In this document: piece by piece, positions 2,237 through 52,329 of the stretch
Layout of the letters: every line of letters begins with the position of its first letter
How positions within the stretch are numbered: the stretch's first letter is position 1
Origin: a virus
Taxonomy: Duplodnaviria > Caudoviricetes
IMG/VR virus record: IMGVR_UViG_3300033433_000003
Span: 1-52,959 of that record
DNA: 52,959 bases
Reading direction: 5' to 3' (one strand)
Notes under the pieces: generated by a model
The model's database searches: none
Told to the model about the DNA's origin: nothing
The model's input: only the letters and a program-made list of their open reading frames with translations
Made by a program: the position numbers and the translations under genes

Positions 2237-2497
2237 CTATATCAATTCATGACGTTCACATCCGTCTTGTCCTGAGAAATGTATATTGTGATCACAAGAA
2301 CACCAACCTTCATTCTGATCATAATCATCAAGTAGATGGAAAGATGTGCAATTGCAACACCATCTTTTGACACTTATTGATTTAACATATCTTGCGCAAT
2401 ATGAATCATAATGAACAAAATGGCTGTTTTTATCGCACCAGGAAAATGCTGATCTGGAATTAACTATTATGAATGCTTCACAATCTTTGCATCTCAT
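2237..2497 (-). CDS. small Cys-rich protein, two CxxC...C...C units
   Basis: Translation; coupled to the upstream stop. Confidence 0.6.
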   Translation of the reverse strand: MRCKDCEAFIIVNSRSAFSWCDKNSHFVHYDSYCARYVKSISVKRWCCNCTSFHLLDDYDQNEGWCSCDHNIHFSGQDGCERHELI

Positions 2498-3378
2498 TAT
2501 TCGCCATCCTCAAAATGCTCATGATCAGGATCTGATGCGTCAAATATATCATTGATCAGATCAAAAAGATATGGCCTGAATATTTTTGGATCTTCTGGAA
2601 TGGGATTTGCTTTGAGCTTAGATATCAATGCATTGAAATGCAGAACGTCAACTCCAATGAGCTGATCTTTCAACACCTCAACACTATTTAAATCAAGATT
2701 TGAAACATCATAAATCATCTTCAAGTATTCAGATGCTCCGCAGGTCCATCCTCTCTTTATGAACTTGCGTGTTCTTATGATCGAGCTGAGTGGATACCTT
2801 GAGCCGATATATTTCAGCTCTTTGGTCAATATGCATTGCATTGCAAATGTATCAAGAACCAAACCTTTGCTTGTCATATAAGACTTTACATGAGCAAAGT
2901 CAAAATTTTTATGGATTTCTTCTGGTGATCCTGTGAAGCGGGTGATGAACTGAATGCCGTCTGACAAGGTGACTGCATTATCAGTTATTGCGATTGGCAG
3001 GTAAGTTCCTTTGTCAGGTTTCTTTTTGGCCCTCAAGATTCCGTTGCTTCTGATGAATGTACGAACTCTTGTAGGATCTTTTTCATCAATTTTCACATAC
3101 ACATTGTCTTTATCAGTCTCTGAAAGCTTCGAGACATAGTATTCAGCAAGTTCTTTGCAGAATTCGGCATTGGAGAAGTAAACATCAAAGTCATTCGGTT
3201 CTTCCTGAAGCAACATCGATACTATGCTTCCGCCTGTAACAATATAATACTTTTCGATGCCATCAGCAAGTTTTGCATAATGATTCAAAGATTTGTCAGT
3301 CTTTGAGTAATCGATGATGGTCTTTTTCCAAGCATTGATTTTTGCTTTGATCGTTAGTTCGATGGTTTTCTTTTTCAT
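2497..3378 (-). CDS. nucleotidyltransferase-superfamily protein (pol beta / CCA-head-like)
   Basis: TGGSIVSMLLQEEPNDFDVYF (GG...DxD), later NFDFAH and R..KFIKRGW. Confidence 0.7.
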   Translation of the reverse strand: MKKKTIELTIKAKINAWKKTIIDYSKTDKSLNHYAKLADGIEKYYIVTGGSIVSMLLQEEPNDFDVYFSNAEFCKELAEYYVSKLSETDKDNVYVKIDEKDPTRVRTFIRSNGILRAKKKPDKGTYLPIAITDNAVTLSDGIQFITRFTGSPEEIHKNFDFAHVKSYMTSKGLVLDTFAMQCILTKELKYIGSRYPLSSIIRTRKFIKRGWTCGASEYLKMIYDVSNLDLNSVEVLKDQLIGVDVLHFNALISKLKANPIPEDPKIFRPYLFDLINDIFDASDPDHEHFEDGE

Positions 3379-4420: not shown

Positions 4421-5359
4421 TCATAAGTTTTTCTTTGACAAATCATAGTTATTTTTCCATATAAGCTGTTTGATAACTTTTATGTCCTTCCATATATCAT
4501 CAAGCATTACATTCTTCCATATTGCATACCTGCCAAGCGAAAATACACCATAATCACGAGTAAGCAAATATATGCAGTGTTTCCTGAATTCATCATCTAT
4601 CGGAGCAAACTTTCCATTCTCTTGAATAGTTTCATCTAAAAATTCAACTTGGTCTGAATACTTTATTCCAAATGCAGCAATTGCTTCGCTTGTTGCAGCT
4701 CCAACAGATGATGATATGTCATTATTTATCATTTCAATAATAAGCATATTTCCAGTCAAAGATGCTCGGTAAATAGAATTGTTGTAATCAGGAAAATAAA
4801 CTGTTTGATAAACATCACATCTTTTAACCCTGTATCGTATGATTCTTATTTTTTCACTTTTGAACATTTTGAATTCATCAGCCTTCATATGCTGCAAACA
4901 ACTTATCATCTTATGCATTGGCATAGTGCTGATCAATTTATCTTCATTCAATCCTGATCGCTCTTGTTCAAAATCAAATTCATAATGAATCCTGTCATTA
5001 TATCTTTCAAGCAAAATTTCATGGAAGTTTTCAGGAGCGATGAACCGAGTGCAAGTCTCCATATTCCATATAGATCGATCGTCTATCGTATTGGCGACTT
5101 TTGTTGAATACTGATTGCAAAGCTTTATGTTTGGCTCTTTAAATCCACCTTTGCTCCATATGCCCTTATGTACGGTTACTTTCTTGAATGGAATGCCGAG
5201 GTGATCACCTATATCTGAAGTTCTGAATCTTAGCAGGGCGCGATGCGGCTTGATATCGCCTTTACTTGACTTTTCGTAAATAATTGAATCAGGGAAATGA
5301 GATGATGCAAGAAGTCCTGAAAGTCCAGCGCCGATGATCGAAATTGATTGGTTTTGCAT
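4421..5359 (-). CDS. FAD/NAD-binding flavoprotein (UDP-galactopyranose mutase / amine oxidase-like fold)
   Basis: N-terminal IIGAGLSGLLA dinucleotide motif, ISTMP, C-terminal SLGRYAIWK. Confidence 0.75.
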   Translation of the reverse strand: MQNQSISIIGAGLSGLLASSHFPDSIIYEKSSKGDIKPHRALLRFRTSDIGDHLGIPFKKVTVHKGIWSKGGFKEPNIKLCNQYSTKVANTIDDRSIWNMETCTRFIAPENFHEILLERYNDRIHYEFDFEQERSGLNEDKLISTMPMHKMISCLQHMKADEFKMFKSEKIRIIRYRVKRCDVYQTVYFPDYNNSIYRASLTGNMLIIEMINNDISSSVGAATSEAIAAFGIKYSDQVEFLDETIQENGKFAPIDDEFRKHCIYLLTRDYGVFSLGRYAIWKNVMLDDIWKDIKVIKQLIWKNNYDLSKKNL

Positions 5360-5387
5360 GATACTTATTATTTATTTATGTTTATAC

Positions 5388-5533
5388 ATCCTATGCCGGA
5401 CTTGCTTTTCCCGCTACCTTATAATATATTAAAAGGAAAGGAGCCGAAAAAGTATTTTATTTTTCTAAAACGTTTTAAAGTTACTCGCCTTTCCTTATAT
5501 TATAAGGGTTCGGCAGTATATAACTAATAAATT
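5388..5533. promoter_or_regulatory. divergent promoter pair (CCTTTCCTT...TATATTATAAGG on each strand)
   Basis: Transcription diverges here; similar motif present on both strands. Confidence 0.65.
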
Positions 5534-5538
5534 GAATC

Positions 5539-5919
5539 ATGCCTACAGTCTACGTCACTCAGATTCCCATTCGCAAAGATAAGCAAACAGGGGATTACGT
5601 ACCTTCACTCAACATATCTCCTGCATCGGAGTTCGGAGCAATAGAAATTCTGATGCCTTCGCAAGTCGGATATATTCATATCCCAACTCTTTTTACCACA
5701 CTTCGAGAAAAGCTCAGCAGCTATAACGCTGAAAATGGCGACGTTCTTTTGCCATTGGGCGATCCAGGAATTATTGCGGCTTCGACAGCAATACTTGCAA
5801 TCGAATATGGAAACTTTTCGATCCTGAAGTGGGAGCGAAACCTTGGAAGGTACGTTTCCACTCATTTCGATTATAATTTATATATGGAAAACAAAAGTTG
5901 GGCTTCCAAATATGAATAA
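5539..5919 (+). CDS. conserved phage hypothetical protein
   Basis: First gene of the rightward operon; alpha/beta pattern, LLPLGDP. Confidence 0.7.
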   Translation: MPTVYVTQIPIRKDKQTGDYVPSLNISPASEFGAIEILMPSQVGYIHIPTLFTTLREKLSSYNAENGDVLLPLGDPGIIAASTAILAIEYGNFSILKWERNLGRYVSTHFDYNLYMENKSWASKYE

Positions 5920-8871: not shown

Positions 8872-9060
8872 ATGTCTCATACGATTGTATGCCCCCATTG
8901 CTCAAATGTCATCACAACAGAAATATCAAACAAATCAGATGCAGAAGACTGTGATGGTGAAGACATCATTTGTCATCATTGCGGAAAAGAGTTTATGATC
9001 AACATCAACTGGTCATGGTCGATCTCAACAGTAAAAATTGAAGAAAATGCAACAATTTAA
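8872..9060 (+). CDS. zinc-ribbon protein
   Basis: CPHC and CHHC. Confidence 0.7.
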   Translation: MSHTIVCPHCSNVITTEISNKSDAEDCDGEDIICHHCGKEFMININWSWSISTVKIEENATI

Positions 9061-11272
9061 GGTTGACACCCTTCGTGCAGCTCTTGAATATGCTGCAAAA
9101 GGTTGGTATATTTTCCCTCTACATTCAATCGATGAAAATGGACATTGCACTTGCGGAAGTGAAACTTGCACTGACGCTGGTAAGCACCCCAGACGTGAGC
9201 TGGTTCCAAAAGGTCTGAAAGCTGCCAGCAGGGATCTGTCCTTGATCGAAAGATGGTTTCATATTGAAGGTGAACCTTCGAACATTGGAATCGCGACAGG
9301 TGAAATCTCTGGAATCACAGTCATAGATATAGACATTGGCGACGGAAAGGGTGGAGCTGAATCATGGCAGGAGATCGTTACAGAGCATGGTGAAGTTCAG
9401 ACCCTTATGGCATCAACAGGTTCTGGTGGTGTTCATATGATATTTTTGTACAATTCAGCTTTGAAAACTGCCTCCAATGTTCTTGGCAAAGGCATAGACT
9501 GTAGAAATGATGGTGGTTACATTGTTGCTGCTCCTGGTCGTCATCGCAGTGGTGGCGTTTATTCATGGGTTGATGAGTCTGTGGAAATTCGTTCTTTGCC
9601 CGCCCACATGGCTCGAAGAAAAGAAACACGTGGAAGGCCAAAAAAGGGTGACCTTACCAAGGCCAAGTATTCTCTCAACACCGTGCAGGACATGCTGTCT
9701 GTGGTTCCGGCAGACGACCGAGACACCTGGAGAAATGTAGGAATCATTCTCGGAAGGGAATTCAAGCGTTCAGATGATGCCTGGCTTACTTATATTGAGT
9801 GGGCCGAAAAGGGAATGAAAGATGGCAAAAAGGGCAGAAATCATGATAAGATCATGCATGAAGCCTTTTATGAAATATCTGCTATCGACACATCTTCTGG
9901 AAGTCTTACGATGGGAACCATTGTTAAGATGGCTCTTGAAAATGGCTGGGCCCCAAAAGCTGGTGACGTTCCTATCGAAAACTTCATTTATTATGGTCCT
10001 GGAAATAACTACATTTATCGGCCAACTGGTTCAGCTTGGGTTTCCAGTGCAGTGGATGTGGCAGTTTCACCTGTAAATGAAGATGGCAAGATTTTGCAAG
10101 CTTCTGACTGGCTGAAGATGAATCAGCTTGCGACGTCTATGACATGCGACCCTTCCATCGAAGATGACTTTGTAAAAGGCTTCGACAACCGACACGGTGA
10201 AATATGCAAGGTTCCTGGCTCAGCAATATACAACAACTATATTAAGCCGACCATCGAGCCTGGAGATTCACGATTAGCTCAACCGTTCTTGGAGCATTGC
10301 GCAAAGGTGTTCAACAAAAAAGGTGATTGCGAGCAGTTCTTGAATTACATGGCTCATAGGGTTCAGAAACCATGGGAAAAACCAAGGTTCGCTCTTTTGA
10401 TTGCAGGTAGCCAGGGAGTTGGCAAAGATACAGCAATTGAAATGTGTGGTCCAGCAATCGGAACTTGGAACATAGCGAACATCGATCCTTCTGCATTTGA
10501 GAGTCAGTTCAATGAATACGCGGCTTCCACTTTGGTGCGTATCAGCGAGGCGGCCAATCTGCACGAAATGTCGAAATGGGCTTTCAATGAACGTACAAAA
10601 GTGCTGATTGCAGGAACTCCTGATGTTATGATGATCAATTATAAGTACGGAATGAAAAGTCCTATCAGGATGTACTGTGGAGTTGTGATTACCACAAATC
10701 ATCTTGGTTCCGGTATATACATTCCTGCTGACGATAGGCGATACGATGTTATTGAGACAGCATCAATGGAAGAAATGGGAATTGCAGACATCGATATAAG
10801 ACGACAATATTTCGATGATTTATGGAGTTGGTTCCTATTGCATGGCGGAGATACACATGTTGCGGCGTACCTTGCCAATCGTGACATTTCTGGATTCTCG
10901 GCATCCAATGGACAACGCAAGACTGATGCTCATAAGACTGTTGTTGCTGCTGGAATGTCGTCTGATGAATGGCTTGCAGACATTCTTGATGATTTGCAGG
11001 ACGTTGAAAACGCGCATGGGCGTGGCAAGCTGTTCGCCGTTCGTGGAGATGTTATAACATCCAAGGCTGAACAAAAAGGTGAAAAGGCCGGAGATGTGAA
11101 AAGGAAACTTGGCGCATCGTTGGGCCGTGCCGGTTTCCAGATTTACAGAAATCCTGATCGACAGGATGGCCGTTGGCTGATCGAAGGCAAGCGCACGACG
11201 GTATATGTTAAGAATGATGCGCCTGAAGGTATAATTCCAAATCAAATTGACGCTTTAAAGGAGATGTTCTAA
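9047..11272 (+). CDS. bifunctional primase-polymerase with PriCT-2 and SF3/DUF5906-type helicase
   Basis: NIGIATG, VIDID, TGSGGVH, GIDCRNDGGYIVAAP; Walker A GSQGVGKD; ITTNH, DDRRY. Confidence 0.9.
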   Translation: MQQFKVDTLRAALEYAAKGWYIFPLHSIDENGHCTCGSETCTDAGKHPRRELVPKGLKAASRDLSLIERWFHIEGEPSNIGIATGEISGITVIDIDIGDGKGGAESWQEIVTEHGEVQTLMASTGSGGVHMIFLYNSALKTASNVLGKGIDCRNDGGYIVAAPGRHRSGGVYSWVDESVEIRSLPAHMARRKETRGRPKKGDLTKAKYSLNTVQDMLSVVPADDRDTWRNVGIILGREFKRSDDAWLTYIEWAEKGMKDGKKGRNHDKIMHEAFYEISAIDTSSGSLTMGTIVKMALENGWAPKAGDVPIENFIYYGPGNNYIYRPTGSAWVSSAVDVAVSPVNEDGKILQASDWLKMNQLATSMTCDPSIEDDFVKGFDNRHGEICKVPGSAIYNNYIKPTIEPGDSRLAQPFLEHCAKVFNKKGDCEQFLNYMAHRVQKPWEKPRFALLIAGSQGVGKDTAIEMCGPAIGTWNIANIDPSAFESQFNEYAASTLVRISEAANLHEMSKWAFNERTKVLIAGTPDVMMINYKYGMKSPIRMYCGVVITTNHLGSGIYIPADDRRYDVIETASMEEMGIADIDIRRQYFDDLWSWFLLHGGDTHVAAYLANRDISGFSASNGQRKTDAHKTVVAAGMSSDEWLADILDDLQDVENAHGRGKLFAVRGDVITSKAEQKGEKAGDVKRKLGASLGRAGFQIYRNPDRQDGRWLIEGKRTTVYVKNDAPEGIIPNQIDALKEMF

Positions 11273-12126: not shown

Positions 12127-12225
12127 CGTATAACGTGTATTTTTAATCAGCGCCTATATTATGTTTATTCGATCCGAAAAGTTATCTTATATTAGGTTTA
12201 AGAATAGGCAACAACTAAACGGAGA
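12127..12225 (+). repeat. 99-bp promoter/RBS cassette, near-identical copy at 18998-19096
   Basis: CGTATAACGTGTATTTTTAATCAG...GAAAAGTTAT.TTATATTAGG.TTAAGAATA.GCAACAACTAAACGGAGA. Confidence 0.9.
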
Positions 12226-12230
12226 CTACA

Positions 12231-12473
12231 ATGGCTTTCAAAATTACCAGATTCGACGAGAAAGGAAAAGTCAAAAAAGTTGACTACTTCTTTTCCTTGA
12301 ATACTGTTATATTCGTAGCTTTCGGAGAAAAGGACTTTGAATTTATGAAAGAAGAGGTTTACGGTTATATGAATGAATGCGCATCTTACAGCAGCGGAAT
12401 ATCGTACATGAGAGATGGAACGATAGAATACACAGAAGGATGCTTCATAATCGAATTAACAGAAGATGTGTAA
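12231..12473 (+). CDS. small acidic early protein
   Basis: GGAG SD, own promoter. Confidence 0.75.
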   Translation: MAFKITRFDEKGKVKKVDYFFSLNTVIFVAFGEKDFEFMKEEVYGYMNECASYSSGISYMRDGTIEYTEGCFIIELTEDV

Positions 12474-17109: not shown

Positions 17110-17550
17110 ATGCGAAATAACATGATAGGAGGCTGTATGCGGGAAATTACGTCGTCGTGCTTAGATATTACAATTTTAAAGGAATATTTCAAATATTATC
17201 CTGAAACAGGATTTATAGTATGGAGGAAAAAGTCATGTATCAAAAGCAGGATTGGAGCCGGAAACTTTGATTTAATGAGAGTTGAACGTGGACAGTTAAG
17301 TGAAGAAGATTCTGAAGTTGTTGCAGGAAATAGATATGATGGAGGCAGAAAGATTGTCTTCAGAGGTAAGCAAATGAAGTCGAGAAGAGTTGCTTGGATG
17401 TTGTATTATGGAGAGATTCCGAATGGGGATGTAATCAACATAGATGGAGATGTTTATAATGATAGGATCGAAAACCTTGGCGTGCTTACGAGAAGTGAAC
17501 GAATGAGAAGATTGATTAACAGAACGAGAGCTGAAGGAGGAATAGAATGA
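17110..17550 (+). CDS. degenerate HNH homing-endonuclease-like protein
   Basis: FKYYPETG.IVW N-terminus, RVAWMLYYGEIP, VINIDGDVYNDRIENL (catalytic His absent). Confidence 0.7.
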   Translation: MRNNMIGGCMREITSSCLDITILKEYFKYYPETGFIVWRKKSCIKSRIGAGNFDLMRVERGQLSEEDSEVVAGNRYDGGRKIVFRGKQMKSRRVAWMLYYGEIPNGDVINIDGDVYNDRIENLGVLTRSERMRRLINRTRAEGGIE

Positions 17551-17765
17551 TCTGGAAGTTTGTCAGATTAGTATTCATATTTTTTCAGCTGTATATTTTC
17601 ATATCGATTATAAGATGCACAGGAATGTAATAAATTTGGAAAATAAATTTTTGCGCCTATGGGGAAATTTCGTATATTTAATTAATGTGAATTGCTATTA
17701 ATTTGTGAAGATCAGGCTTAGTCGAATGGTTCGGCAAAAGCCAAAAACTTAAATGGAGATTGACC

Positions 17766-18419
17766 ATGTCCGAAAAAGTTGTAGACGAAATCCAGGCTGG
17801 CCAGATTCAGGATGCTGTTGAAGCTCTGACTGAAGCAGGTGAAGCCATCGAAGAAGCCAAGGAAGCTCTGGAAGGCGCTGAAAATCCTGAATGCTCTGAA
17901 AAGTCTGAAAAGGCCAAAAAGGAAAAGGAGTATGTTTCTCCTGAAGAAAAGAAAATCCATCAGTCCGAAGGAACCAAAAAGAGTTGGGAAGACCCTGGTG
18001 TTGCTGCTGCCAGAAAGATTCGCCGTGGCTGTATCGTTACCCCGCCTGATGGTGTCGGCACTGTACTTCGCTTTGCCAGTGTCTGGGCCGCATTCCAGTA
18101 TTACGCTTCCGAAAACCAGATCAATCTCGGCAATGTTTCCAAGGCGATATCTTTCAGGAGAGAACTCAGGATGGAGGATGGCAAGGAGATGGCCCTGGAG
18201 GTCGAAGGTGTCGGCTCATTCATGTTCAAGGATTGTCCGATTCCTGTGATCGAAAAGCCCAAAAAGGAAAAGGCAGTGAAGCCGAAAGAAGGTGAAGAGG
18301 GATTTGTCCCTGCCGAAAAGAAGGCCAAAAAGCCGAAGAAAGCCAAACAGACGCCTGAAAAACCCAATGAAATTCCGGTTGATGCTGAGCCTATGAATGT
18401 CGAAGCCAAATGGGATTGA
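17766..18419 (+). CDS. Lys/Glu-rich putative DNA-binding protein, paralog of 19957
   Basis: KSWEDPGVAAARKIRRG core; GGAG SD; own promoter and terminator. Confidence 0.8.
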   Translation: MSEKVVDEIQAGQIQDAVEALTEAGEAIEEAKEALEGAENPECSEKSEKAKKEKEYVSPEEKKIHQSEGTKKSWEDPGVAAARKIRRGCIVTPPDGVGTVLRFASVWAAFQYYASENQINLGNVSKAISFRRELRMEDGKEMALEVEGVGSFMFKDCPIPVIEKPKKEKAVKPKEGEEGFVPAEKKAKKPKKAKQTPEKPNEIPVDAEPMNVEAKWD

Positions 18420-18445
18420 CAGAAGCAAAGCATACGCATCGAAAT

Positions 18446-18478
18446 GAAACCCTGGTGAAAGCTGGGGTTTCTGTTTTT
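18446..18478 (+). terminator. rho-independent terminator
   Basis: GAAACCCTGG-TGAAAG-CTGGGGTTTC plus T-rich tail. Confidence 0.7.
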
Positions 18479-18997
18479 ATACAAACTAATTGAATATAAT
18501 GTAAGTGTTGATTAAAAAGAGATTCCGTGCTTAAAACTATGTGACACAAACACAAATCTGGCTCCGGCGAACGAAAATTGATAAATCGTAATGTAAACCA
18601 TTAAAATCTCTTTGTATCACGACCGTCGAACGACGATTCAACAACCATCATCCACCTTCCAACGTCCTTGGATTTTGAACAATTTCCACATACAGCGGCG
18701 TTCCCCTATACATAGACAAATCCAAAAACTTTGAAACTTCCACAAACGCTGGCGTTCCCATTATCATTAACAGAAACATCAACTTTGTTAATGGAAATGA
18801 AAGTGGCCCCACGAACAGTGAACATCGGTCAACGACCATGTTAATGGTGCCGGCAATGTTAATGGTAATGAAAGCTCTCTCCCTCGAACGACGACCGGCG
18901 ACCGACGACGAACGTACATATAATAGGCGTGTTTTAACATCGTATACGGCGCTATCGCATTGCTCCCCGAGTATTTAGACGACCGAAAAACGAAGCC

Positions 18998-19096
18998 CGT
19001 ATAACGTGTATTTTTAATCAGATGCTATATTATGTTTAACCGGCTCGAAAAGTTATATTATATTAGGATTAAGAATAAGCAACAACTAAACGGAGA
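18998..19096 (+). repeat. 99-bp promoter/RBS cassette, copy 2
   Basis: Aligns without gaps to 12127-12225. Confidence 0.9.
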
Positions 19097-19101
19097 ATAG
19101 A

Positions 19102-19377
19102 ATGTCTTACAAATACGTTATTACCTTCGACGACGATTCAACTTCCAACTCCTCTCTCTTCGATACAGTCGAAGAAGTGTATGCCGCACTCCCTTTCGAT
19201 TGGAAGTATTATGAAGAAGTAATTGGAGGGGATAGAATTGAAGATGTAAAGTATTTGAAAGAGCAATTGGATTTGGAATGTGCAATATCGGTGTACGATG
19301 CAAGAATCCAGGATTTGTTTGCCATAAAGCCAATTGCCTATAATGTAGCTGATGTAACTATTGAAATTGTAAACTAA
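19102..19377 (+). CDS. small acidic early protein
   Basis: Directly behind the cassette; GGAG SD. Confidence 0.75.
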   Translation: MSYKYVITFDDDSTSNSSLFDTVEEVYAALPFDWKYYEEVIGGDRIEDVKYLKEQLDLECAISVYDARIQDLFAIKPIAYNVADVTIEIVN

Positions 19378-19392
19378 AAGGAGCAACGAACG

Positions 19393-19491
19393 ATGACCGA
19401 CAAACGATGGTCTTGGACCGTGGCATTGGCAATGATTGGCCTTGGGCTTGGCGTTACATTGATCGAATGGCTTGTGTATCATCCGATGTGA
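19393..19491 (+). CDS. 32-aa membrane peptide (not in ORF track)
   Basis: AAGGAG SD; MTDKRWSWTVALAMIGLGLGVTLIEWLVYHPM. Confidence 0.55.
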   Translation: MTDKRWSWTVALAMIGLGLGVTLIEWLVYHPM

Positions 19492-19570
19492 CGTTCCTGG
19501 AGCGCCGGTCGCGCGGCGTGTTTTTGGAAATTTTCATATACATGAGCGTTCCCGTATAGGTATGTCGAAA

Positions 19571-19730
19571 ATGTAAATGATTATGAATGATGTAAATGGC
19601 AATGAAAGTGAAATCTGATGGTAATGGAATGAAATGGCAATGAAAATGGAATGGAATGAAAATGGAATGAAAATGGAATGAAAATGGAATGAAAATGGAA
19701 TGAAAATGTTATGGGCAAGGGATGATGTAG
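19571..19730 (+). repeat. ATGGAATGAAA 11-bp satellite (5 perfect copies at 19651-19705 with degenerate flanks)
   Basis: Direct inspection. Confidence 0.95.
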
Positions 19731-19731
19731 G

Positions 19732-19802
19732 TATACCTATACCCGGTAGGGGTATATACCTATACCCGGCAGGGGTATATACTGATACCCGGTAGGGGTA
19801 TA
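19732..19802. repeat. 3 x 23-bp tandem repeat TATACCTATACCCGGTAGGGGTA, each containing the inverted repeat TATACCC-N5-GGGTATA
   Basis: Direct inspection; 1-2 mismatches in copies 2 and 3. Confidence 0.95.
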
Positions 19803-19956
19803 AGCAAGGGCAAGGGACTTTGAAATAAAAAGTTATTATATCGAAAGTTTTTTACGAAAAAGTTAGGTTAATTCGATTTTTCGCCGTACTATTAAGGAGA
19901 AGGAACGGCAAGGTAGCCCGCCCTTCCCTATAACTAATAACTAAAAGGAGCGCAAA

Positions 19957-20427
19957 ATGCAGAACGCAAACGCAAACGTCGAAGCAGTCGAGATCGCAAG
20001 GCACTATAAAGCAAATCCCGAAGAGGAAATAAAAACGGCGATCGGGATCGGAGTAGCGAAGAGCTACGATAACCCTGCTATCGCTGCCGCCCGCAAGGTA
20101 AGGAGAGGCGTATACGTAACCGTAGGAGATGCCGCGCCCGCCTATTACGAAAGCACGTATAAAGCCTTTACCGGTCTTAAAATTCCCGCTTCCGTAGGGC
20201 AAATTATTGCTTTTCGCGGTCGCTTACGCAAGCCGGAAAACGCTGCCGGTCTGCCTTTTAAGGTCGGAGAGGTAACGTATTTCTTCTCCGATACGGAACG
20301 CATTCCTGCGAAGCCGAAAGCCGAAACGGTCGCACCGGAAGCCGCACCGGAAGCCGCACCGGAACCGGAAGCCGCACCGGAACCGGAAGCCGCACCGAAA
20401 AAGGGAAGGCGATCCGCGAAGAAATAA
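19957..20427 (+). CDS. putative DNA-binding early protein with APE(PE)A repeat tail; lies in the TGD/HCA-free island
   Basis: AAGGAG SD, KSYDNPAIAAARKVRRG core shared with 17766, own terminator. Confidence 0.85.
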   Translation: MQNANANVEAVEIARHYKANPEEEIKTAIGIGVAKSYDNPAIAAARKVRRGVYVTVGDAAPAYYESTYKAFTGLKIPASVGQIIAFRGRLRKPENAAGLPFKVGEVTYFFSDTERIPAKPKAETVAPEAAPEAAPEPEAAPEPEAAPKKGRRSAKK

Positions 20428-20447
20428 ACGACGACCGACCCGACGAC

Positions 20448-20479
20448 GAACCCCGCCCGCGAAGCGGGGTTTTTCGTTT
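20448..20479 (+). terminator. rho-independent terminator
   Basis: AACCCCGC-CCGCGAA-GCGGGGTT plus T-run. Confidence 0.8.
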
Positions 20480-20751
20480 CCCGTTTCGGCGGTTTGGAGC
20501 GCCCTCCCCATACCGATATACGGCGAACGGTGGCAGGTAAGTTAAACTAATTTAACTTTTTATAACAGGCTCATCGATCAACGAACCACATTCCCCGGAA
20601 ACAGTCCATTTTTCAACTTTCTCAGATCACCGAATCACGATTTTTATTTTTTCTGTACAAACTTTTGTTTCAAAAAGGCAATTTGCTTTTTATTAAAAAA
20701 ATTCGTATATTGCTTAATGGACATATTCAACAACAATAGTATCCATTGACC

Positions 20752-21414
20752 ATGGCAAACATAAAAGCAACGTTTGAAGTCACAAGACATCTTACTGAAG
20801 AAGAAGAAGACAGGAAAGCAGCACTACAAGTTCATGATCCTCACGCCGATATACCATTAGCACCAATAAAGCCGAAGCCCGCGACATGGGCTAAAGGTTC
20901 AAAACTCACGGACAAGAACGGTGAGCCAATCAGGAAGAAGGGCGTGCGTAACAAGCGATCTTTGGAAATCATAAGATCCATTGAAGAAGCATGTAGACTA
21001 CTTGGCGCCACCATGGAAGAGGATATCAAAGCGCTTTCACCTCTGAAACGAATGGAGATGTGGTGTAATCTTCAGGAATACCTGAGACCGAGGTTGGCGC
21101 GAGTGGAACAGACTGGCGAAGGAGGCGGACCACTCAACCACCGACACACCATCATCACCAGGCCACACGGAACTCCTGGAATTTCAGGCAATGCAGTCAA
21201 CCATAACTCTATCCAAGAAGGAGAGCCACATGAAGCCGCGCTGTTAAGTCATGGTGACATCGTTGATGAAGACGGTGTCGGGTTTGCTCAGACCGTGGTG
21301 ACGCACGTGAATCACGAGACAGGCAGTATCGTGCAGCATGTAGCCACGGTCAGACAACTTCCTTTGGACTGCAAGGTTCCTGAAGGTGAAACAGAAGTGG
21401 AGATAATATCATGA
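20752..21414 (+). CDS. terS: terminase small subunit (putative)
   Basis: KGVRNKRS, EYLRPRLARVEQTGEGGGPL; lies upstream of TerL. Confidence 0.7.
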   Translation: MANIKATFEVTRHLTEEEEDRKAALQVHDPHADIPLAPIKPKPATWAKGSKLTDKNGEPIRKKGVRNKRSLEIIRSIEEACRLLGATMEEDIKALSPLKRMEMWCNLQEYLRPRLARVEQTGEGGGPLNHRHTIITRPHGTPGISGNAVNHNSIQEGEPHEAALLSHGDIVDEDGVGFAQTVVTHVNHETGSIVQHVATVRQLPLDCKVPEGETEVEIIS

Positions 21415-21710
21415 CAGATATGAGTAAAATGACGATCGACGACCATTTTTATGGCGAGGGAAATGTAATCAAAATGAGGAAAGAGGATATTCATAGCGCC
21501 TGCGACCCTTTGATCGCAATGCTGAAGCATTTTGGAGTGAAAATTGATGACCTTTGCTCGGTGACCATCTCGGCAAATGGCGAAAATTATGGCATGGTAC
21601 ACATTGATTGCAAGTACCAATACACCAATTCAACAGGCGAATTTGGCTTTGAAAAGGTCAAATACAAGGTGGAAATCGACCGAAAATCGGAAGATCAGGA
21701 CGTTGAATGA
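21411..21710 (+). CDS. hypothetical protein
   Basis: ATGA-coupled between terS and terL. Confidence 0.65.
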   Translation: MTDMSKMTIDDHFYGEGNVIKMRKEDIHSACDPLIAMLKHFGVKIDDLCSVTISANGENYGMVHIDCKYQYTNSTGEFGFEKVKYKVEIDRKSEDQDVE

Positions 21711-23023
21711 TGATAAATGATCAAAATACATACGAAAATCCTGAAGAAGAGTTTGATGAGGATTTCGAGGATTATGAAGAAGATAGTCCTGACAGTGAAA
21801 GTCAGTTTATACTGAACTATCACGTGTATTTTGATCCAATTTATAATCCTGACAATCCGAACTACAAACGGCGATACATGATTTGGTATGGCGGCAGGGC
21901 TGGCCGCAAATCATGGGAGATTGCTCGTGGACTGCTGTTAAGATCGGCAAGTTCCAAGCTAAGAATTGTTTGCGCTCGTGAATTCCAGAATTCCATAGCT
22001 GATTCAGTTCTGAAGTTGTTGGAAGATCAGATTGGAATCATGGGAATGGAGAAGGAGTTCGATGTTCAACGAACGACGATCTACCATAAATACACAGGCT
22101 CTCAGTTCATTTTCAAGGGTTTGGCTAAAGCCAACATACAAGCTCTGAAATCATTGGAAGGCGCTGACTTGTGCTGGGTTGAAGAGGCTCAGGTTGTCAG
22201 TGAAGATAGCTGGAAAATCTTGACTCCTACCATTCGTAAGCCAGGTTCTCAGATCATAATCAGTCTGAACCCTGAGCTTGCTGAGGATCCAACCAGCGTG
22301 AGATACTTGATTAACACTCCGCCGAACTCCTACATATGTAAGATCAATTATACAGACAATATCGACTGCACGCCTGAAATCATCGAAGAAGCTGAATGGT
22401 GTAAAATCACCGATTTGGATGCATATAAGCATGTTTGGCTTGGTGAATTCAGGAAGGCGAGCGACGCTCAAATTCTGAAAGACAAGTGGATTGTTGATCG
22501 TTTTGAGCCTAAAGCAACATGGGATGGACCTTATTATGGAATGGACTTTGGATTCAGCACAGATCCTATGGCTTGTGTTGAAGTTTGGGTTGATTCTATT
22601 GCAAGAAAGTTGTATGTAAGGAGAGAGTCCGTGCGTAGAGGTGTTGAGGTTGAAGAGATGGAAGAACACATTACCAAAATGCCAGGCTCCAAAAGGTTTT
22701 TGCATAGGGCTGATAATGCAAGGCCTGAATTGATAAGCTATTTGAACTTACAAGGCTTTAATGTCGTTGCTGCACAAAAGTGGCAAGGGTCGATAGAAGA
22801 TGGAATAACATTCCTTAGATCATTTATCCAGATTGTAATACATCCTGATTGCAAAAACACAGAATTTGAATGCAAGTATTACAGTTACAAGATTGATAAG
22901 CTTACAGGCGAAGTAACAACCAACATAGTTGATAAGCATAATCACTGCATTGACGCTATACGTTATGCAATTGAGCCAATCGTAACAAGAAAGTTCATTA
23001 ATTATAAAAATTGGGTTAAATGA
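21707..23023 (+). CDS. terL: terminase large subunit, PBSX family
   Basis: YGGRAGRKS, CAREFQNSI, WVEEAQ, PTIRKPGS, GMDFGFSTDP, NHCIDAIRYA. Confidence 0.95.
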   Translation: MMINDQNTYENPEEEFDEDFEDYEEDSPDSESQFILNYHVYFDPIYNPDNPNYKRRYMIWYGGRAGRKSWEIARGLLLRSASSKLRIVCAREFQNSIADSVLKLLEDQIGIMGMEKEFDVQRTTIYHKYTGSQFIFKGLAKANIQALKSLEGADLCWVEEAQVVSEDSWKILTPTIRKPGSQIIISLNPELAEDPTSVRYLINTPPNSYICKINYTDNIDCTPEIIEEAEWCKITDLDAYKHVWLGEFRKASDAQILKDKWIVDRFEPKATWDGPYYGMDFGFSTDPMACVEVWVDSIARKLYVRRESVRRGVEVEEMEEHITKMPGSKRFLHRADNARPELISYLNLQGFNVVAAQKWQGSIEDGITFLRSFIQIVIHPDCKNTEFECKYYSYKIDKLTGEVTTNIVDKHNHCIDAIRYAIEPIVTRKFINYKNWVK

Positions 23024-43226: not shown

Positions 43227-43261
43227 GTTATATTAGGTTAATTTTTTGCCTATATAACATG

Positions 43262-49382: not shown

Positions 49383-49808
49383 TCAGTCAGGAGTTATGCT
49401 TTCCAACATAGCAGAGTAGTTCATAAGGTCATGCGCTGAATCCTTGTGTCCTCCTTCATCCAAAGAGGCGCAATATCGCATGAGCTTGGTGACGATCTGT
49501 ACGATTACTCCAAGTTTGGTGGCAGAAGTGATTGCCATATCATTGGTATCAATATGTATGCCTTGCGGGAAAAGTGCCATCATCACAGGTCCGAACTGCT
49601 TGTATACATCACCGTACTTATCGCCATACTGCATTCGACGACCCATGAGCGTTTCTATTCCACCTTTGAGAGTTTTTTCAATCTCCGAAAGCTCCATTTG
49701 CCCGATAGTGCTTTGAATGTATCCTGGATCTGTAAAATATCCCATTCCACCTTTCGGAATATCAGTTGAATGAGAATTTGCTGGAGGATCAAATGCTTTG
49801 CTTAACAT
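49383..49808 (-). CDS. DUF1599/DUF6378-like all-alpha nucleotide-modification-associated protein (start uncertain)
   Basis: R..QYGD...KLMRY...HKDSAHDLMNYSAML. Confidence 0.6.
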   Translation of the reverse strand: MLSKAFDPPANSHSTDIPKGGMGYFTDPGYIQSTIGQMELSEIEKTLKGGIETLMGRRMQYGDKYGDVYKQFGPVMMALFPQGIHIDTNDMAITSATKLGVIVQIVTKLMRYCASLDEGGHKDSAHDLMNYSAMLESITPD

Positions 49809-49861
49809 AATTCTTTTGTCTTTTAGAGTTTTGATTATCTCTTCTTCTGTCGGTATATCTA

Positions 49862-50368
49862 TTATGAATACCCTTTTACGAGCTGAGTCATCAGCGCCAG
49901 GTTTCGTTCGACGATGCCGATAATTACGCCCATATGGACTTGGAGTTGCCATGCTACCTCTCTGTTTTTTTCATAGTAAGGATTATTGACCAGCGTGCGA
50001 ATTGTTTCCTCTGTCCAGAAACTTTTGTGGTCAAGGTCTTGATATGCAATCATTCCGAGCCTATGTGGCACGACGATGTTCAGGGTTCCGCCGACAACCA
50101 AAACTCTTTCGCATTCCTTCAGAATTCTGATTGCATCTTCTCCGGTGAGATGTTCAAAGAAATGGAATGCCCAAATTGTGTCCATCGATTCACTCGGGTA
50201 TGGTATGTTTGACGTTACAGCGTCCCAATCTGGCCAATCGATGTTTTCGCAGTTTGGAAGCTTGTTTGCTCCACAACCGAGATTCAGCTGGTATTTACCT
50301 GGCTCAATAAGCTCAGGAATATCACGTTTCATTCCAAGCTTAAAAAATTCGTTGATGTTAAATGACAT
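49862..50368 (-). CDS. class I SAM-dependent methyltransferase (type 11-like)
   Basis: LNLGCG, HFFEHL, RVL..GG.L.IVVP, DLDHK. Confidence 0.85.
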   Translation of the reverse strand: MSFNINEFFKLGMKRDIPELIEPGKYQLNLGCGANKLPNCENIDWPDWDAVTSNIPYPSESMDTIWAFHFFEHLTGEDAIRILKECERVLVVGGTLNIVVPHRLGMIAYQDLDHKSFWTEETIRTLVNNPYYEKNREVAWQLQVHMGVIIGIVERNLALMTQLVKGYS

Positions 50369-50804
50369 TTTTGTTTATTCTTTTCATTGTTTGCTGAATG
50401 CCCTGCTTTTTGTACATCTCAAGAACGATGGCCCTATCATCGTAAGCCATATCTATTACTGCACCGGGATTGGCCTCCAAGAACATTTTTAGGAAATGCA
50501 TTTTCAGAATATGGCTTGGCATCTTGTTGCCATTCGGCCTCATATATACCAAATCTGTATTTATGTTATTCTTTGCAAGCCAAAGTTTTGTTGCAAGAAT
50601 ATACTTGATTGGTCTGCCAGTGAATATCACTACGTTTTCGGGGAAAGGAATATCTGGATACCAATTGAAATCATCTATGCCACACCCGCTGTGATAAGCC
50701 TCAAGCTTTTTGTTCCTGCTAAAACTATTTGTATCACCAAGCCAATGCTGCCTCCATCCATCATTTGAAATGCAGTTGTCGAGATCAAGTATAGTGTAAT
50801 TCAT
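50358..50804 (-). CDS. HAD-family phosphatase (PNKP 3'-phosphatase-like)
   Basis: DLDNC, FTGRP, MRP...K, YDDR. Confidence 0.85.
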   Translation of the reverse strand: MNYTILDLDNCISNDGWRQHWLGDTNSFSRNKKLEAYHSGCGIDDFNWYPDIPFPENVVIFTGRPIKYILATKLWLAKNNINTDLVYMRPNGNKMPSHILKMHFLKMFLEANPGAVIDMAYDDRAIVLEMYKKQGIQQTMKRINKNVI

Positions 50805-52119: not shown

Positions 52120-52162
52120 GGCAGGATGTAGTTTTAAGTTTTATCGTCAAAAATCAACTTCG

Positions 52163-52235
52163 TAAGCGATGCGGGGTTCGAACCCGCGACCTCCTGCTCC
52201 CAAAGCAGGCGCGCCACCAGCTGCGCTAATCGCTT
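52163..52235 (-). tRNA. tRNA-Pro (TGG), no encoded CCA
   Basis: Cloverleaf: AAGCGAT/ATCGCTT acceptor, CCTGC-TTTGGGA-GCAGG, GGTTCGAAC T-arm. Confidence 0.92.
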
Positions 52236-52256
52236 ATAAATTCAAGTGTATCTTCG

Positions 52257-52329
52257 AGCCACCCAAGGGAATCGAACCCTCAACCTGCCGATTACAAATC
52301 CGCTGCTCTACCAATTGAGCTAAGGTGGC
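52257..52329 (-). tRNA. tRNA-Thr (TGT), no encoded CCA
   Basis: GCCACCT/GGGTGGC acceptor, TAGCTCAATTGGTAGAGC D-arm, TTTGTAA loop (one G-G mismatch in the stem), GGTTCGATT. Confidence 0.92.

Follow-up and report, generated by a model that had tools for sequence, protein, structure and literature searches.

A phage gene cassette free of TG-not-C and its reverse complement, with avoidance conserved in related phages

The virus genome deposited as IMG/VR record IMGVR_UViG_3300033433_000003 (Duplodnaviria; Caudoviricetes), whose 52,959 nt were analyzed in full and are referred to here as the window, carries an island of 673 nt around the gene for a small protein, P0001, from which six trinucleotides are missing on either strand. 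These words are TGA, TGG, and TGT (collectively TGD) and TCA, CCA, and ACA (HCA), the two classes being each other's reverse complements. A preliminary description, made from the letters alone, had noticed this absence and proposed that the virion DNA carries a bulky base modification in the TGD/HCA context from which the cassette is exempt. The observation is confirmed here and extended to a clade of phages, the exclusion acts at the level of DNA, and the idea of a modification is still the leading, if unproven, reading. The parts of the island and the paralog of its gene are as follows.

19822-20494 (673 nt), either strand: island free of TGA, TGG, TGT, TCA, CCA, and ACA by word count
19939-19951, + strand: leader/Shine-Dalgarno box AACTAAAAGGAGC, repeat family D6, common to the leaders of the genes at 19102 and 12231
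19957-20427, + strand: P0001 gene, 156 aa, PHROG 4730, with weak NUMOD/I-HmuI-like DNA-binding leads and C-terminal PEAAPE repeats
20448-20472, + strand: intrinsic terminator hairpin followed by a T run, with the end of the island ~20 nt beyond
17760-18419, + strand: unconstrained paralog P0002 (35% identity over 116 columns, E 2e-10)

Results

The six words occur 6011 times in the 52,959 nt (113.5 per kb), which corresponds to ~27% of G positions (6011 of 22,277 G+C), and the bulk genome shows no depletion of them (observed/expected 0.89-1.42). The longest gap between occurrences is the 674 nt from 19821 to 20495, far exceeding the next gaps of 147, 87, and 82 nt, so that the left limit of the island, originally placed at 19824, moves to 19822 while the right limit of 20494 is retained. 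From the genome-wide density ~76 words would be expected in the island, more than the ~60 of the first estimate, and none is present. All 8 TG dinucleotides are TGC and all 19 CA are GCA, exactly as had been described, a ninth TG that enters the count being the right-hand boundary word. When ~500 two- and three-letter motif sets were scanned, TGD/HCA was the top motif-free outlier in the window (score 67.8).

All of the shuffles, even one keeping the dinucleotides of the island, exclude chance as the origin of the gap. Mononucleotide shuffling of the island left a mean of 62.1 words (minimum 43 in 3000 shuffles), a first-order Markov chain built from its own dinucleotides gave 18.3 (minimum 5 of 3000), and recoding the island protein with genome codon usage gave 32.5 (minimum 18 of 20000). 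Permuting the gene's own codons among synonymous sites, the codon-preserving check that had been suggested at the outset, yielded ~16 out-of-frame words (minimum 7 of 3000) against 0 observed, with each out-of-frame class absent by itself (TGD 0 vs 6.5 and HCA 0 vs 9.6 expected). The absence spans all three reading frames, in-frame NCA codons being missing likewise, and it continues into the non-coding flanks inside the island, where the 134 nt on the 5' side hold 0 vs 12.3 and the 67 nt on the 3' side 0 vs 4.9 expected words, TGD and HCA again being separately absent in both. Because out-of-frame and non-coding words of both classes are avoided, the cause lies at the DNA level, and the exclusion acts regardless of reading frame, coding status, and strand.

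The avoidance recurs in a relative. Its contig, sampled as loci L002 and L004 (37% GC), is binned into a Bacteroidetes metagenome-assembled genome, the putative host, and has in common with the window the order ThyX, DUF932, nucleotidyltransferase, FAD (flavin adenine dinucleotide)-oxidase-like gene, early genes, PrimPol, paralog, island gene, and downstream neighbor. Between the two phages conservation is highest for the PrimPol (74% identity), compared with 48-51% for the island gene and 51% over 75 aa for the neighbor. At 9486-10571 of L002 (~1.09 kb) there are 5 words vs 103 expected, and the 434 nt of non-coding DNA that this stretch includes upstream of the gene have 0 vs 36.5; the motif-set scan again ranked HCA/TGD first in L004 (score 35.7), the three control loci reaching at most 11-18. 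The relative's island contains 66 CG dinucleotides per kb vs 22 per kb elsewhere on the contig, and both phages' islands end ~230-250 bp short of the conserved downstream gene.

Further orthologs were available as proteins only, and in these we counted forced patterns, i.e., residues that need one of the words under any codon choice (Trp; Met not before L, P, H, Q, or R; His or Gln after F, Y, H, N, D, C, or I). The 11 closest homologs (E <= 7e-17), which are 38-54% identical to P0001 except for the near-identical P0003, contain 0 forced patterns in 1665 aa vs 56 expected, whereas all 31 of the more distant homologs hold at least 2 (306 in 9093 aa, or 3.37 per 100 aa). Only 1 of 54 open reading frames (ORFs) of the window, the island gene, has a count of zero, and the L002 ortholog carries one Trp. 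Because the 11 orthologs lack the patterns and the distant homologs have many, the constraint belongs to one orthologous clade rather than to the wider family, which answers the earlier call for a check of orthologs in the affirmative. It is purifying selection against a 3-bp duplex word, older than the divergence of the phage clade, and it shapes the protein.

Other relatives were few. A scan of genome contigs returned 1 relative locus, and a second scan, of metagenomes, returned 2 PrimPol relatives without an island, L005 and L006 (PrimPols 62% and 55% identical), neither having a word-free zone in its 22 kb. L005 shares ThyX, a methyltransferase, and DNA polymerase III (PolIII) alpha with the window and has no P0001 homolog in its 22 kb. 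The genes of L005 all lie on one strand, and its overall TGD/HCA density is low, 74 per kb at 42% GC, with ACA/TGT at 0.51 of expectation. No relative was found in the viral contig collection with P0001, P0005, the homolog alignment, the large terminase, or the PrimPol alignment, in the phage collection with the DNA of 19000-23000 or P0001, or in the metagenome contigs with the homolog alignment. In a 25.7-kb sample of the relative's bin, the word density is normal (93.9 per kb).

The exclusion narrows the alphabet of the protein to one without Trp, with Met only before codons starting with C, and without His or Gln after residues that lack G-ending codons. As the preliminary description had claimed, the constraint overrides the protein sequence: the only Met of P0001 is the start (ATG-C), Trp is absent, as is Cys, and the stop is TAA. 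P0002, by comparison, has 73 words in 654 nt and 14 forced patterns. The proposed replacement of KSW in the paralog by KSY in P0001 holds in the BLASTP alignment, but that of SVW by STY finds no support there, as the SVW of the paralog falls in an alignment gap.

Residues 1-118 of P0001 are of ordinary complexity, the PEAAPE tail being of low complexity. Both P0001 (E 2.9e-07) and P0002 (E 2.6e-06) match the profile of PHROG 4730, a family to which no function is assigned, and for P0001 none of the Pfam, PADLOC, and NCBIfam searches returned a match. The predicted model of P0001, of moderate confidence, has a mean predicted local distance difference test (pLDDT) score of 68.5 and found no Foldseek match at E <= 0.001 and no VIA match at Z >= 5. 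The sole lead that recurs, with weak scores throughout, points to the C-terminal, DNA-binding part of homing endonuclease I-HmuI and to NUMOD-type modules: 1u3e_M stands at Foldseek rank 2 (E 0.87) and VIA Z 4.2, and the leads in the Atlas are clusters with 29% NUMOD1 or 27% I-HmuI_NUMOD-like members (scores 0.84 and 0.82). P0001 is, in our view, a small protein that probably binds DNA. The copy number of the PEAAPE tail is variable (20300-20400): P0003 equals P0001 minus 6 residues, and the Logan contigs of both sequencing runs break there.

A second word-free zone and the repeats and arrays that surround the island are listed below.

5388-5532, strand not applicable: second word-free zone, intergenic between divergent gene arms, in the early-promoter region near the GC-skew minimum at 5704
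18887-18913 (copy 1, + strand) and 20427-20451 (copy 2, in the 3' end of the island): 25-27-nt direct repeat (AACGACGACCG..CGACGACGAAC)
19570-19725, + strand: TG-dense tandem array with an 11-bp period (AATGGAATGAA...)
19732-19802, strand not applicable: three 23-bp direct repeats (TATACC.ATACCCGG.AGGGGTATA), possible operator or iteron sites
20495-20745, + strand: right flank, HCA-rich (TGD 5, HCA 19), opposite in polarity to the left flank

The second zone is the second-longest gap of the window (5386 to 5533). It is empty of words where 12.8 are expected, and TG[^C] takes first place there among the 64 XY[^Z] sets. In the relative, the homologous early-promoter zone has 0 words vs 7.6 expected. 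Depletion is strongest for the TG/CA sets in two more intergenic regions (6 vs 21 and 7 vs 17 expected). The early genes adjoining the word-free promoter have normal word density, and the non-coding stretches 18420-19101 and 20495-20745 show no depletion.

Upstream of the island, the zone 19727-19822 around the 23-bp repeats holds 1 word vs 8.8 expected, and the 250 nt to the left of it (19477-19726) contain 36 TGD and 3 HCA, the most extreme skew in the genome. Both phages show the same polarity at both word-free zones, with TGD lying on the + strand in the left flank and on the - strand in the right one. Around the islands the TGD:HCA counts are 36:3 on the left and 5:19 on the right in the window, and 33:9 (9236-9485) and 2:25 (10572-10821) in L002, the last being the minimum of that locus; around the second zone they are 17:6 on the left and 5:16 on the right. 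This polarity may represent an origin-like architecture, or it may merely reflect G-poor leaders and gene starts.

The preliminary description had given the gene a promoter, a ribosome-binding site (RBS), and a terminator, of which the terminator and the leader/RBS box are present, but a simple sigma-70 scan found no sigma-70-like promoter in 19824-19956. In the shared leader, AACAACTAAAC at the genes 19102 and 12231 corresponds to AATAACTAAAA in the island, a change from ACA to ATA. This leader, possibly a promoter and RBS module specific to the phage, is common to three + strand genes, where it takes the form …TTATATTAGG…AACTAAACGGAG…ATG at 12160-12233, 19030-19104, and 19880-19959. With its upstream repeats, leader/Shine-Dalgarno box, gene, and terminator, the island makes up a self-contained cassette. 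Of the features by which morons are usually defined, it has a terminator of its own and a GC content unlike that of its neighbors (52% vs 42% for the genome). The two copies of the CG-rich 25-27-nt repeat, identical in 24 of 27 columns, bracket a 1.5-kb segment that contains a small ORF, the TG-dense array, the 23-bp repeats, and the island gene.

The record is a complete virus whose ends overlap by 127 nt, giving a circular assembly. In two public read sets, the Logan contigs are interrupted by repeats at the borders of the island (~19680 and ~20350-20368), and one small Logan contig of the second run (20165-20315) matches the window exactly. The genes form two arms that diverge at ~5.4-5.5 kb and converge at ~43.3 kb; the cumulative GC skew has its minimum at 5704 and its maximum at 43248, coinciding with where the arms diverge and converge. 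Four features of this setting bear on the discussion below.

9038-11272, + strand: PrimPol-PriCT_2-D5-type helicase by domain matches, a candidate reader of a short priming word
20746-21414, + strand: conserved downstream neighbor, 222 aa, in small-terminase position, a label given by position only, with no family match
21707-23023, + strand: large terminase (Terminase_3 and RNaseH-like C-terminal domain) by family matches
52162-52329, - strand: tRNA-Pro(TGG) and tRNA-Thr(TGT), whose codons CCA and ACA are among the six avoided words

The first part of the rightward arm carries Pam3 gp32/33/34-like genes, the PrimPol-helicase, many small ORFs, and an HNH endonuclease, and the later part carries the paralog P0002, the island gene, the 222-aa protein, the large terminase (46.8% identical to that of NrS-1, the closest cultured one), the portal, and structural genes. 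The earlier placement of the island near the likely packaging start fits insofar as the cassette sits just upstream of the packaging genes. The leftward arm includes the FAD amine-oxidase-like protein, a CCA-adding-enzyme-like nucleotidyltransferase, DUF932, the two tRNAs, ThyX, a HAD phosphatase, a small S-adenosylmethionine (SAM) methyltransferase, a PNK-like kinase, an exonuclease, PolIII alpha, and an SNF2 helicase. Its first gene (4421-5359, - strand) has an FAD amine-oxidase/UDP-galactopyranose-mutase-like fold (Atlas TM score ~0.78 over ~300 residues); homologs of ~38% identity sit next to PolIII alpha genes in 362 phage records, most of them from Pbunavirus. A putative tRNA-repair and -supply set lies on the - strand at 52162-52329, 2497-3378, and 49383-50804, and comprises the two tRNAs, the CCA-adding-like protein of 293 aa, the PNK-like kinase, the HAD/PNKP-type phosphatase, and the small SAM methyltransferase. 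The model of the 293-aa protein (pLDDT 88) resembles CCA-adding enzymes, with 23 PDB chains at E <= 0.001 (best 2.7e-05), and the set suggests a phage counter to tRNA-damaging host defense.

The search for an agent returned weak candidates only. No DNA methyltransferase, DpdA/TGT (tRNA-guanine transglycosylase), Mom-like protein, or enzyme of the 5-hydroxymethyldeoxyuridine (5-hmdU) pathway was recognized in the family searches (Pfam with 48 ORFs; PHROGs, NCBIfam, and PADLOC with subsets of them), and many ORFs of the window match no family. The enzymes sought included a TGT-like DpdA accompanied by preQ0 genes, a GNAT of Mom type, and 5-HMUDK together with aGPT-Pplase. The modification candidates are the PNK-like kinase (phrog_4889), ThyX, the small SAM methyltransferase, and the protein with the FAD amine-oxidase-like fold; the only methyltransferase has 168 aa and a fold of the small-molecule type. 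PDB sequence searches of five unmatched proteins and comparisons with the Atlas revealed no DNA-modifying enzyme. The HNH endonuclease (17110-17550) was considered as the agent and dropped, as it has no counterpart among the ORFs of the relative at E <= 1e-5.

Discussion

It is clear from our results that chance, composition, foreign origin, codon usage, and mRNA-level causes of the island are excluded. An origin in chance, foreign composition, or low-complexity coding could appeal to the GC content of 52% vs 42% and to the PEAAPE tail, and artefacts of this kind do exist, as in Pseudomonas phage E2005-C (L007), our control for a trivial origin, where a K/A/E/R-rich low-complexity gene of a Pbunavirus yields an AT-free run of 563 nt (5009-5572). 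With all shuffles against it, ordinary complexity over most of the protein, clean flanks, and avoidance conserved in relatives, this explanation retains a negligible share of probability. Recurrent local mutation, in the form of a context-specific conversion of TGD to CGD (A-to-G on the CA strand), would accord with the 80 CG dinucleotides of the island vs 25 at the genome rate, with its GC content, and with the CG enrichment in the relative. However, the excess comes largely from codon choice (CCG, ACG) and from the CG-rich repeat, which is also present outside, the leader shows ATA and not ACG in place of ACA, sharp and conserved boundaries would have no known mechanism, and P0001 remains conserved, with invariant columns in the ortholog alignment; we therefore consider it very improbable. 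What chance is left to an RNA or translation cause, either a tRNA pool lacking UGD-anticodon tRNAs or escape of the mRNA from a sequence-specific RNase, is slimmer still. The two phage tRNAs, the CCA-adding-like and PNK/HAD-type proteins, which make a tRNA conflict plausible, and the missing in-frame NCA codons all speak for it. Codon or tRNA adaptation fails on two counts: avoidance of both classes extends to out-of-frame and non-coding words, and TGC is permitted where TGT is not, though one tRNA reads both. An mRNA-level cause fails because the two neighbor rules (no base but C following TG, no base but G preceding CA) are exact reverse complements, which is not expected from an RNA-reading enzyme, and because the relative's gene is preceded by several hundred clean nucleotides.

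We infer that the agent behind the exclusion resolves single sites, reads DNA as a duplex or, equally, as either single strand, and acts on the rest of the chromosome. Because the bulk genome is undepleted, bulk DNA must tolerate the agent or be protected from it, and because the word is conserved at differing GC contents and the sample of the putative host bin is undepleted, it is more likely that the agent travels with the phage lineage than with any one host strain. The reading that we put first, tentatively and at rather less than even probability, is a TGD-specific DNA mark, or else a cutting activity from which bulk DNA is protected. Of the readings considered, the mark appears, with the same reserve, to fit best the avoidance shared by regulatory DNA together with normal density elsewhere. 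Under it, a covalent base modification would be placed at TGD (cutting or nicking with protected bulk DNA being less likely), and DNA that has to be read natively by sequence-specific proteins would be kept free of targets, namely, early promoters, operator or iteron repeats, and the whole island cassette, whose product may act on, or help to use, the marked remainder of the chromosome (~6000 words). In a more speculative and rather doubtful version, about 1 bp in 9 would be marked by enzymes beyond current family models, leaving a "blank" promoter, operator repeats, and one unmarkable gene. By analogy with Mom, which uses Gly-tRNA, the phage tRNA-Pro and tRNA-Thr with the CCA-adding-like enzyme might feed an aminoacyl-tRNA-dependent modification.

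Several points weigh against such a mark. No DNA-modifying or restriction-type enzyme was recognized in the family searches of Pfam (48 ORFs) and of the PHROGs, NCBIfam, and PADLOC subsets, and L005 shares the replication and nucleotide-metabolism module yet has no word-free zone and no P0001 homolog in its 22 kb. The normal density of the early genes means that a mark cannot simply block transcription, and the original suggestion of modified DNA being unreadable by host RNA polymerase fits poorly with these genes; the second zone and the intergenic TG/CA depletion do fit a mark that disturbs protein-DNA recognition. A mark gives no reason for one wholly clean coding region, which it leaves unexplained, a symmetric mark would give the flanks' strand polarity no natural function, and the 5 exceptions tolerated by the relative mean that a single site is not lethal.

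The main alternative, which we regard as unlikely, is that TGD is the template word of the phage PrimPol-helicase and that the island and the early promoter are kept free of priming on both strands. Template words of 3-4 nt that contain TG and are read on single strands occur among archaeo-eukaryotic primase (AEP)-type primase-polymerases, the word of pRN1 being GTG. For the NrS-1 PrimPol, which has the same domain architecture as the phage protein, PMC8718748 gives the template words GTGA/GTGG and TTTGGTTA, which contain TGA or TGG and in which the fourth base matters weakly. The window encodes a PrimPol with a PriCT_2 helix bundle and a D5-type helicase, no other protein is as well conserved between the two phages, and among cultured phages it is again NrS-1 whose large terminase is closest. 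A primase reading either single strand would give reverse-complement symmetry, would require the word to stay frequent elsewhere, and would need no modification genes. The polarity of the flanks fits outward leading-strand starts in both phages and at both zones, the second of which lies at the GC-skew minimum. On this basis it is conceivable, though again unlikely, that the outward-facing word arrays are arranged as at a bidirectional origin, with the upstream repeats as iterons and P0001 perhaps as an origin-binding protein. However, priming within ~1 kb would do no known harm, which makes strong per-site selection hard to justify, and the G-poor 5' leaders may account for the polarity by themselves. 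The NrS-1 alignment is limited to the helicase part (29% identity), its catalytic and helix-bundle parts having no BLASTP alignment to the phage PrimPol, so that the word is not transferable by homology; no motif-free island came to light in NrS-1 itself, where the maximum score was 11.7, and the 10 kb to either side of the PrimPols of L005 and L006 contain no word-free zone. Our literature search found no report of primase-word exclusion zones.

The preliminary description had also named a host-defense target avoided by first-entering DNA, and a leader cassette without such a target (a short restriction site, the context of a modification-dependent nuclease, or a CRISPR protospacer adjacent motif) that encodes an early anti-defense protein seems to us somewhat less probable than a no-priming zone. 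Having a leader and a terminator to itself, the cassette is autonomous; it adjoins the packaging genes, and avoidance in the first-injected region with sites tolerated elsewhere has a precedent (PMC12455610). Yet the undepleted bulk genome would require a protector, the cassette would have to enter first, the assembly is circular with a 127-nt overlap, Terminase_3 enzymes, to which the large terminase belongs, usually package by a headful mechanism with no fixed entering end, and the relative's bin sample has normal word density. The word is moreover kept across phages of 42% and 37% GC while host restriction specificities change fast, P0001 matches no PADLOC model, and a word-free early promoter in mid-genome is left unexplained. 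A packaging runway, in which DNA beside a pac or cos cut is kept clean against a second cut by a TGD-preferring terminase nuclease, is improbable to a greater degree. The island does lie between phased TG-dense arrays and the terminase genes, the islands of both phages stop at a similar distance before the conserved downstream gene, and a duplex nuclease would produce both strand symmetry and single-site sensitivity. But large-terminase nucleases are not known for any specificity of this kind, the HNH gene of the window lacks a counterpart in the relative at the threshold given above, and neither the second zone nor the intergenic TG/CA depletion is explained.

Early regions of phage genomes such as the gene 0.3 region of T7 and the first-step-transfer region of T5 offer parallels to the island. 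In Murciavirus, sites of a restriction-modification system of Type I are avoided in the leading region, according to PMC12455610. The island is like such leading-region avoidance in that a motif is missing from one region and present elsewhere, near a genome landmark and with a possible early-acting protein; it is unlike it in that the word is 3 bp long and degenerate, is fully excluded over a cassette, restricts the protein alphabet, and is avoided throughout a clade, with no known host system. Short degenerate words are also read by the nickase/methyltransferase pairs of chlorella viruses, e.g., CviPII (CCD), which likewise has a 3-bp word with "not C" as its third base but differs in the word and in the host domain, no nickase/methyltransferase gene having been found in the window. 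Vertebrate CpG islands, taken as an analogy only, are likewise CpG-rich and TpG/CpA-poor blocks over a promoter and gene start in an otherwise ordinary genome, whereas in the phage TGD is absent and not merely at baseline, and the boundaries are those of one cassette. Context-specific partial modification of phage DNA is represented by dPreQ0 at GA or GGC (PMC7544227, PMC10484667) and by Mom, which modifies adenine (PMC13219725). These systems resemble the present case in their short degenerate contexts and in extent, ~27% of G here compared with the ~16.5% of G substituted that is given in PMC10484667; they differ in that DpdA, Mom, and 5-hmdU-pathway genes were not recognized in our family searches and in that the accessible text on them mentions no modification-free island. 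Full-text literature searches, which did not cover supplementary files, returned no report of a TGD/HCA-free or comparable word-free phage gene.

Motif avoidance is a classic footprint of a DNA-reading enzyme, and here it is unusually sharp, as a degenerate 3-bp word is excluded over 0.7-1.1 kb in a manner that bans Trp, nearly bans Met, and persists over ~50% protein divergence. We know of no enzyme of TGD specificity, and none is recognizable in this genome, so that a base modification, a nuclease, or a priming rule, whichever is responsible, would be new. The footprint yields the exact word, TG followed by any base but C, together with a built-in negative control in the island, and the protein signature (no W; M only before L, P, H, Q, or R; no H or Q after F, Y, H, N, D, C, or I) allows protein databases to be searched for more genes under this constraint without their DNA. 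If the word proves to be the priming triplet of the PrimPol, this would be the first "no-priming zone" to define the architecture of an origin, and if a DNA mark is the true reading, the island would be a viral counterpart of CpG islands.

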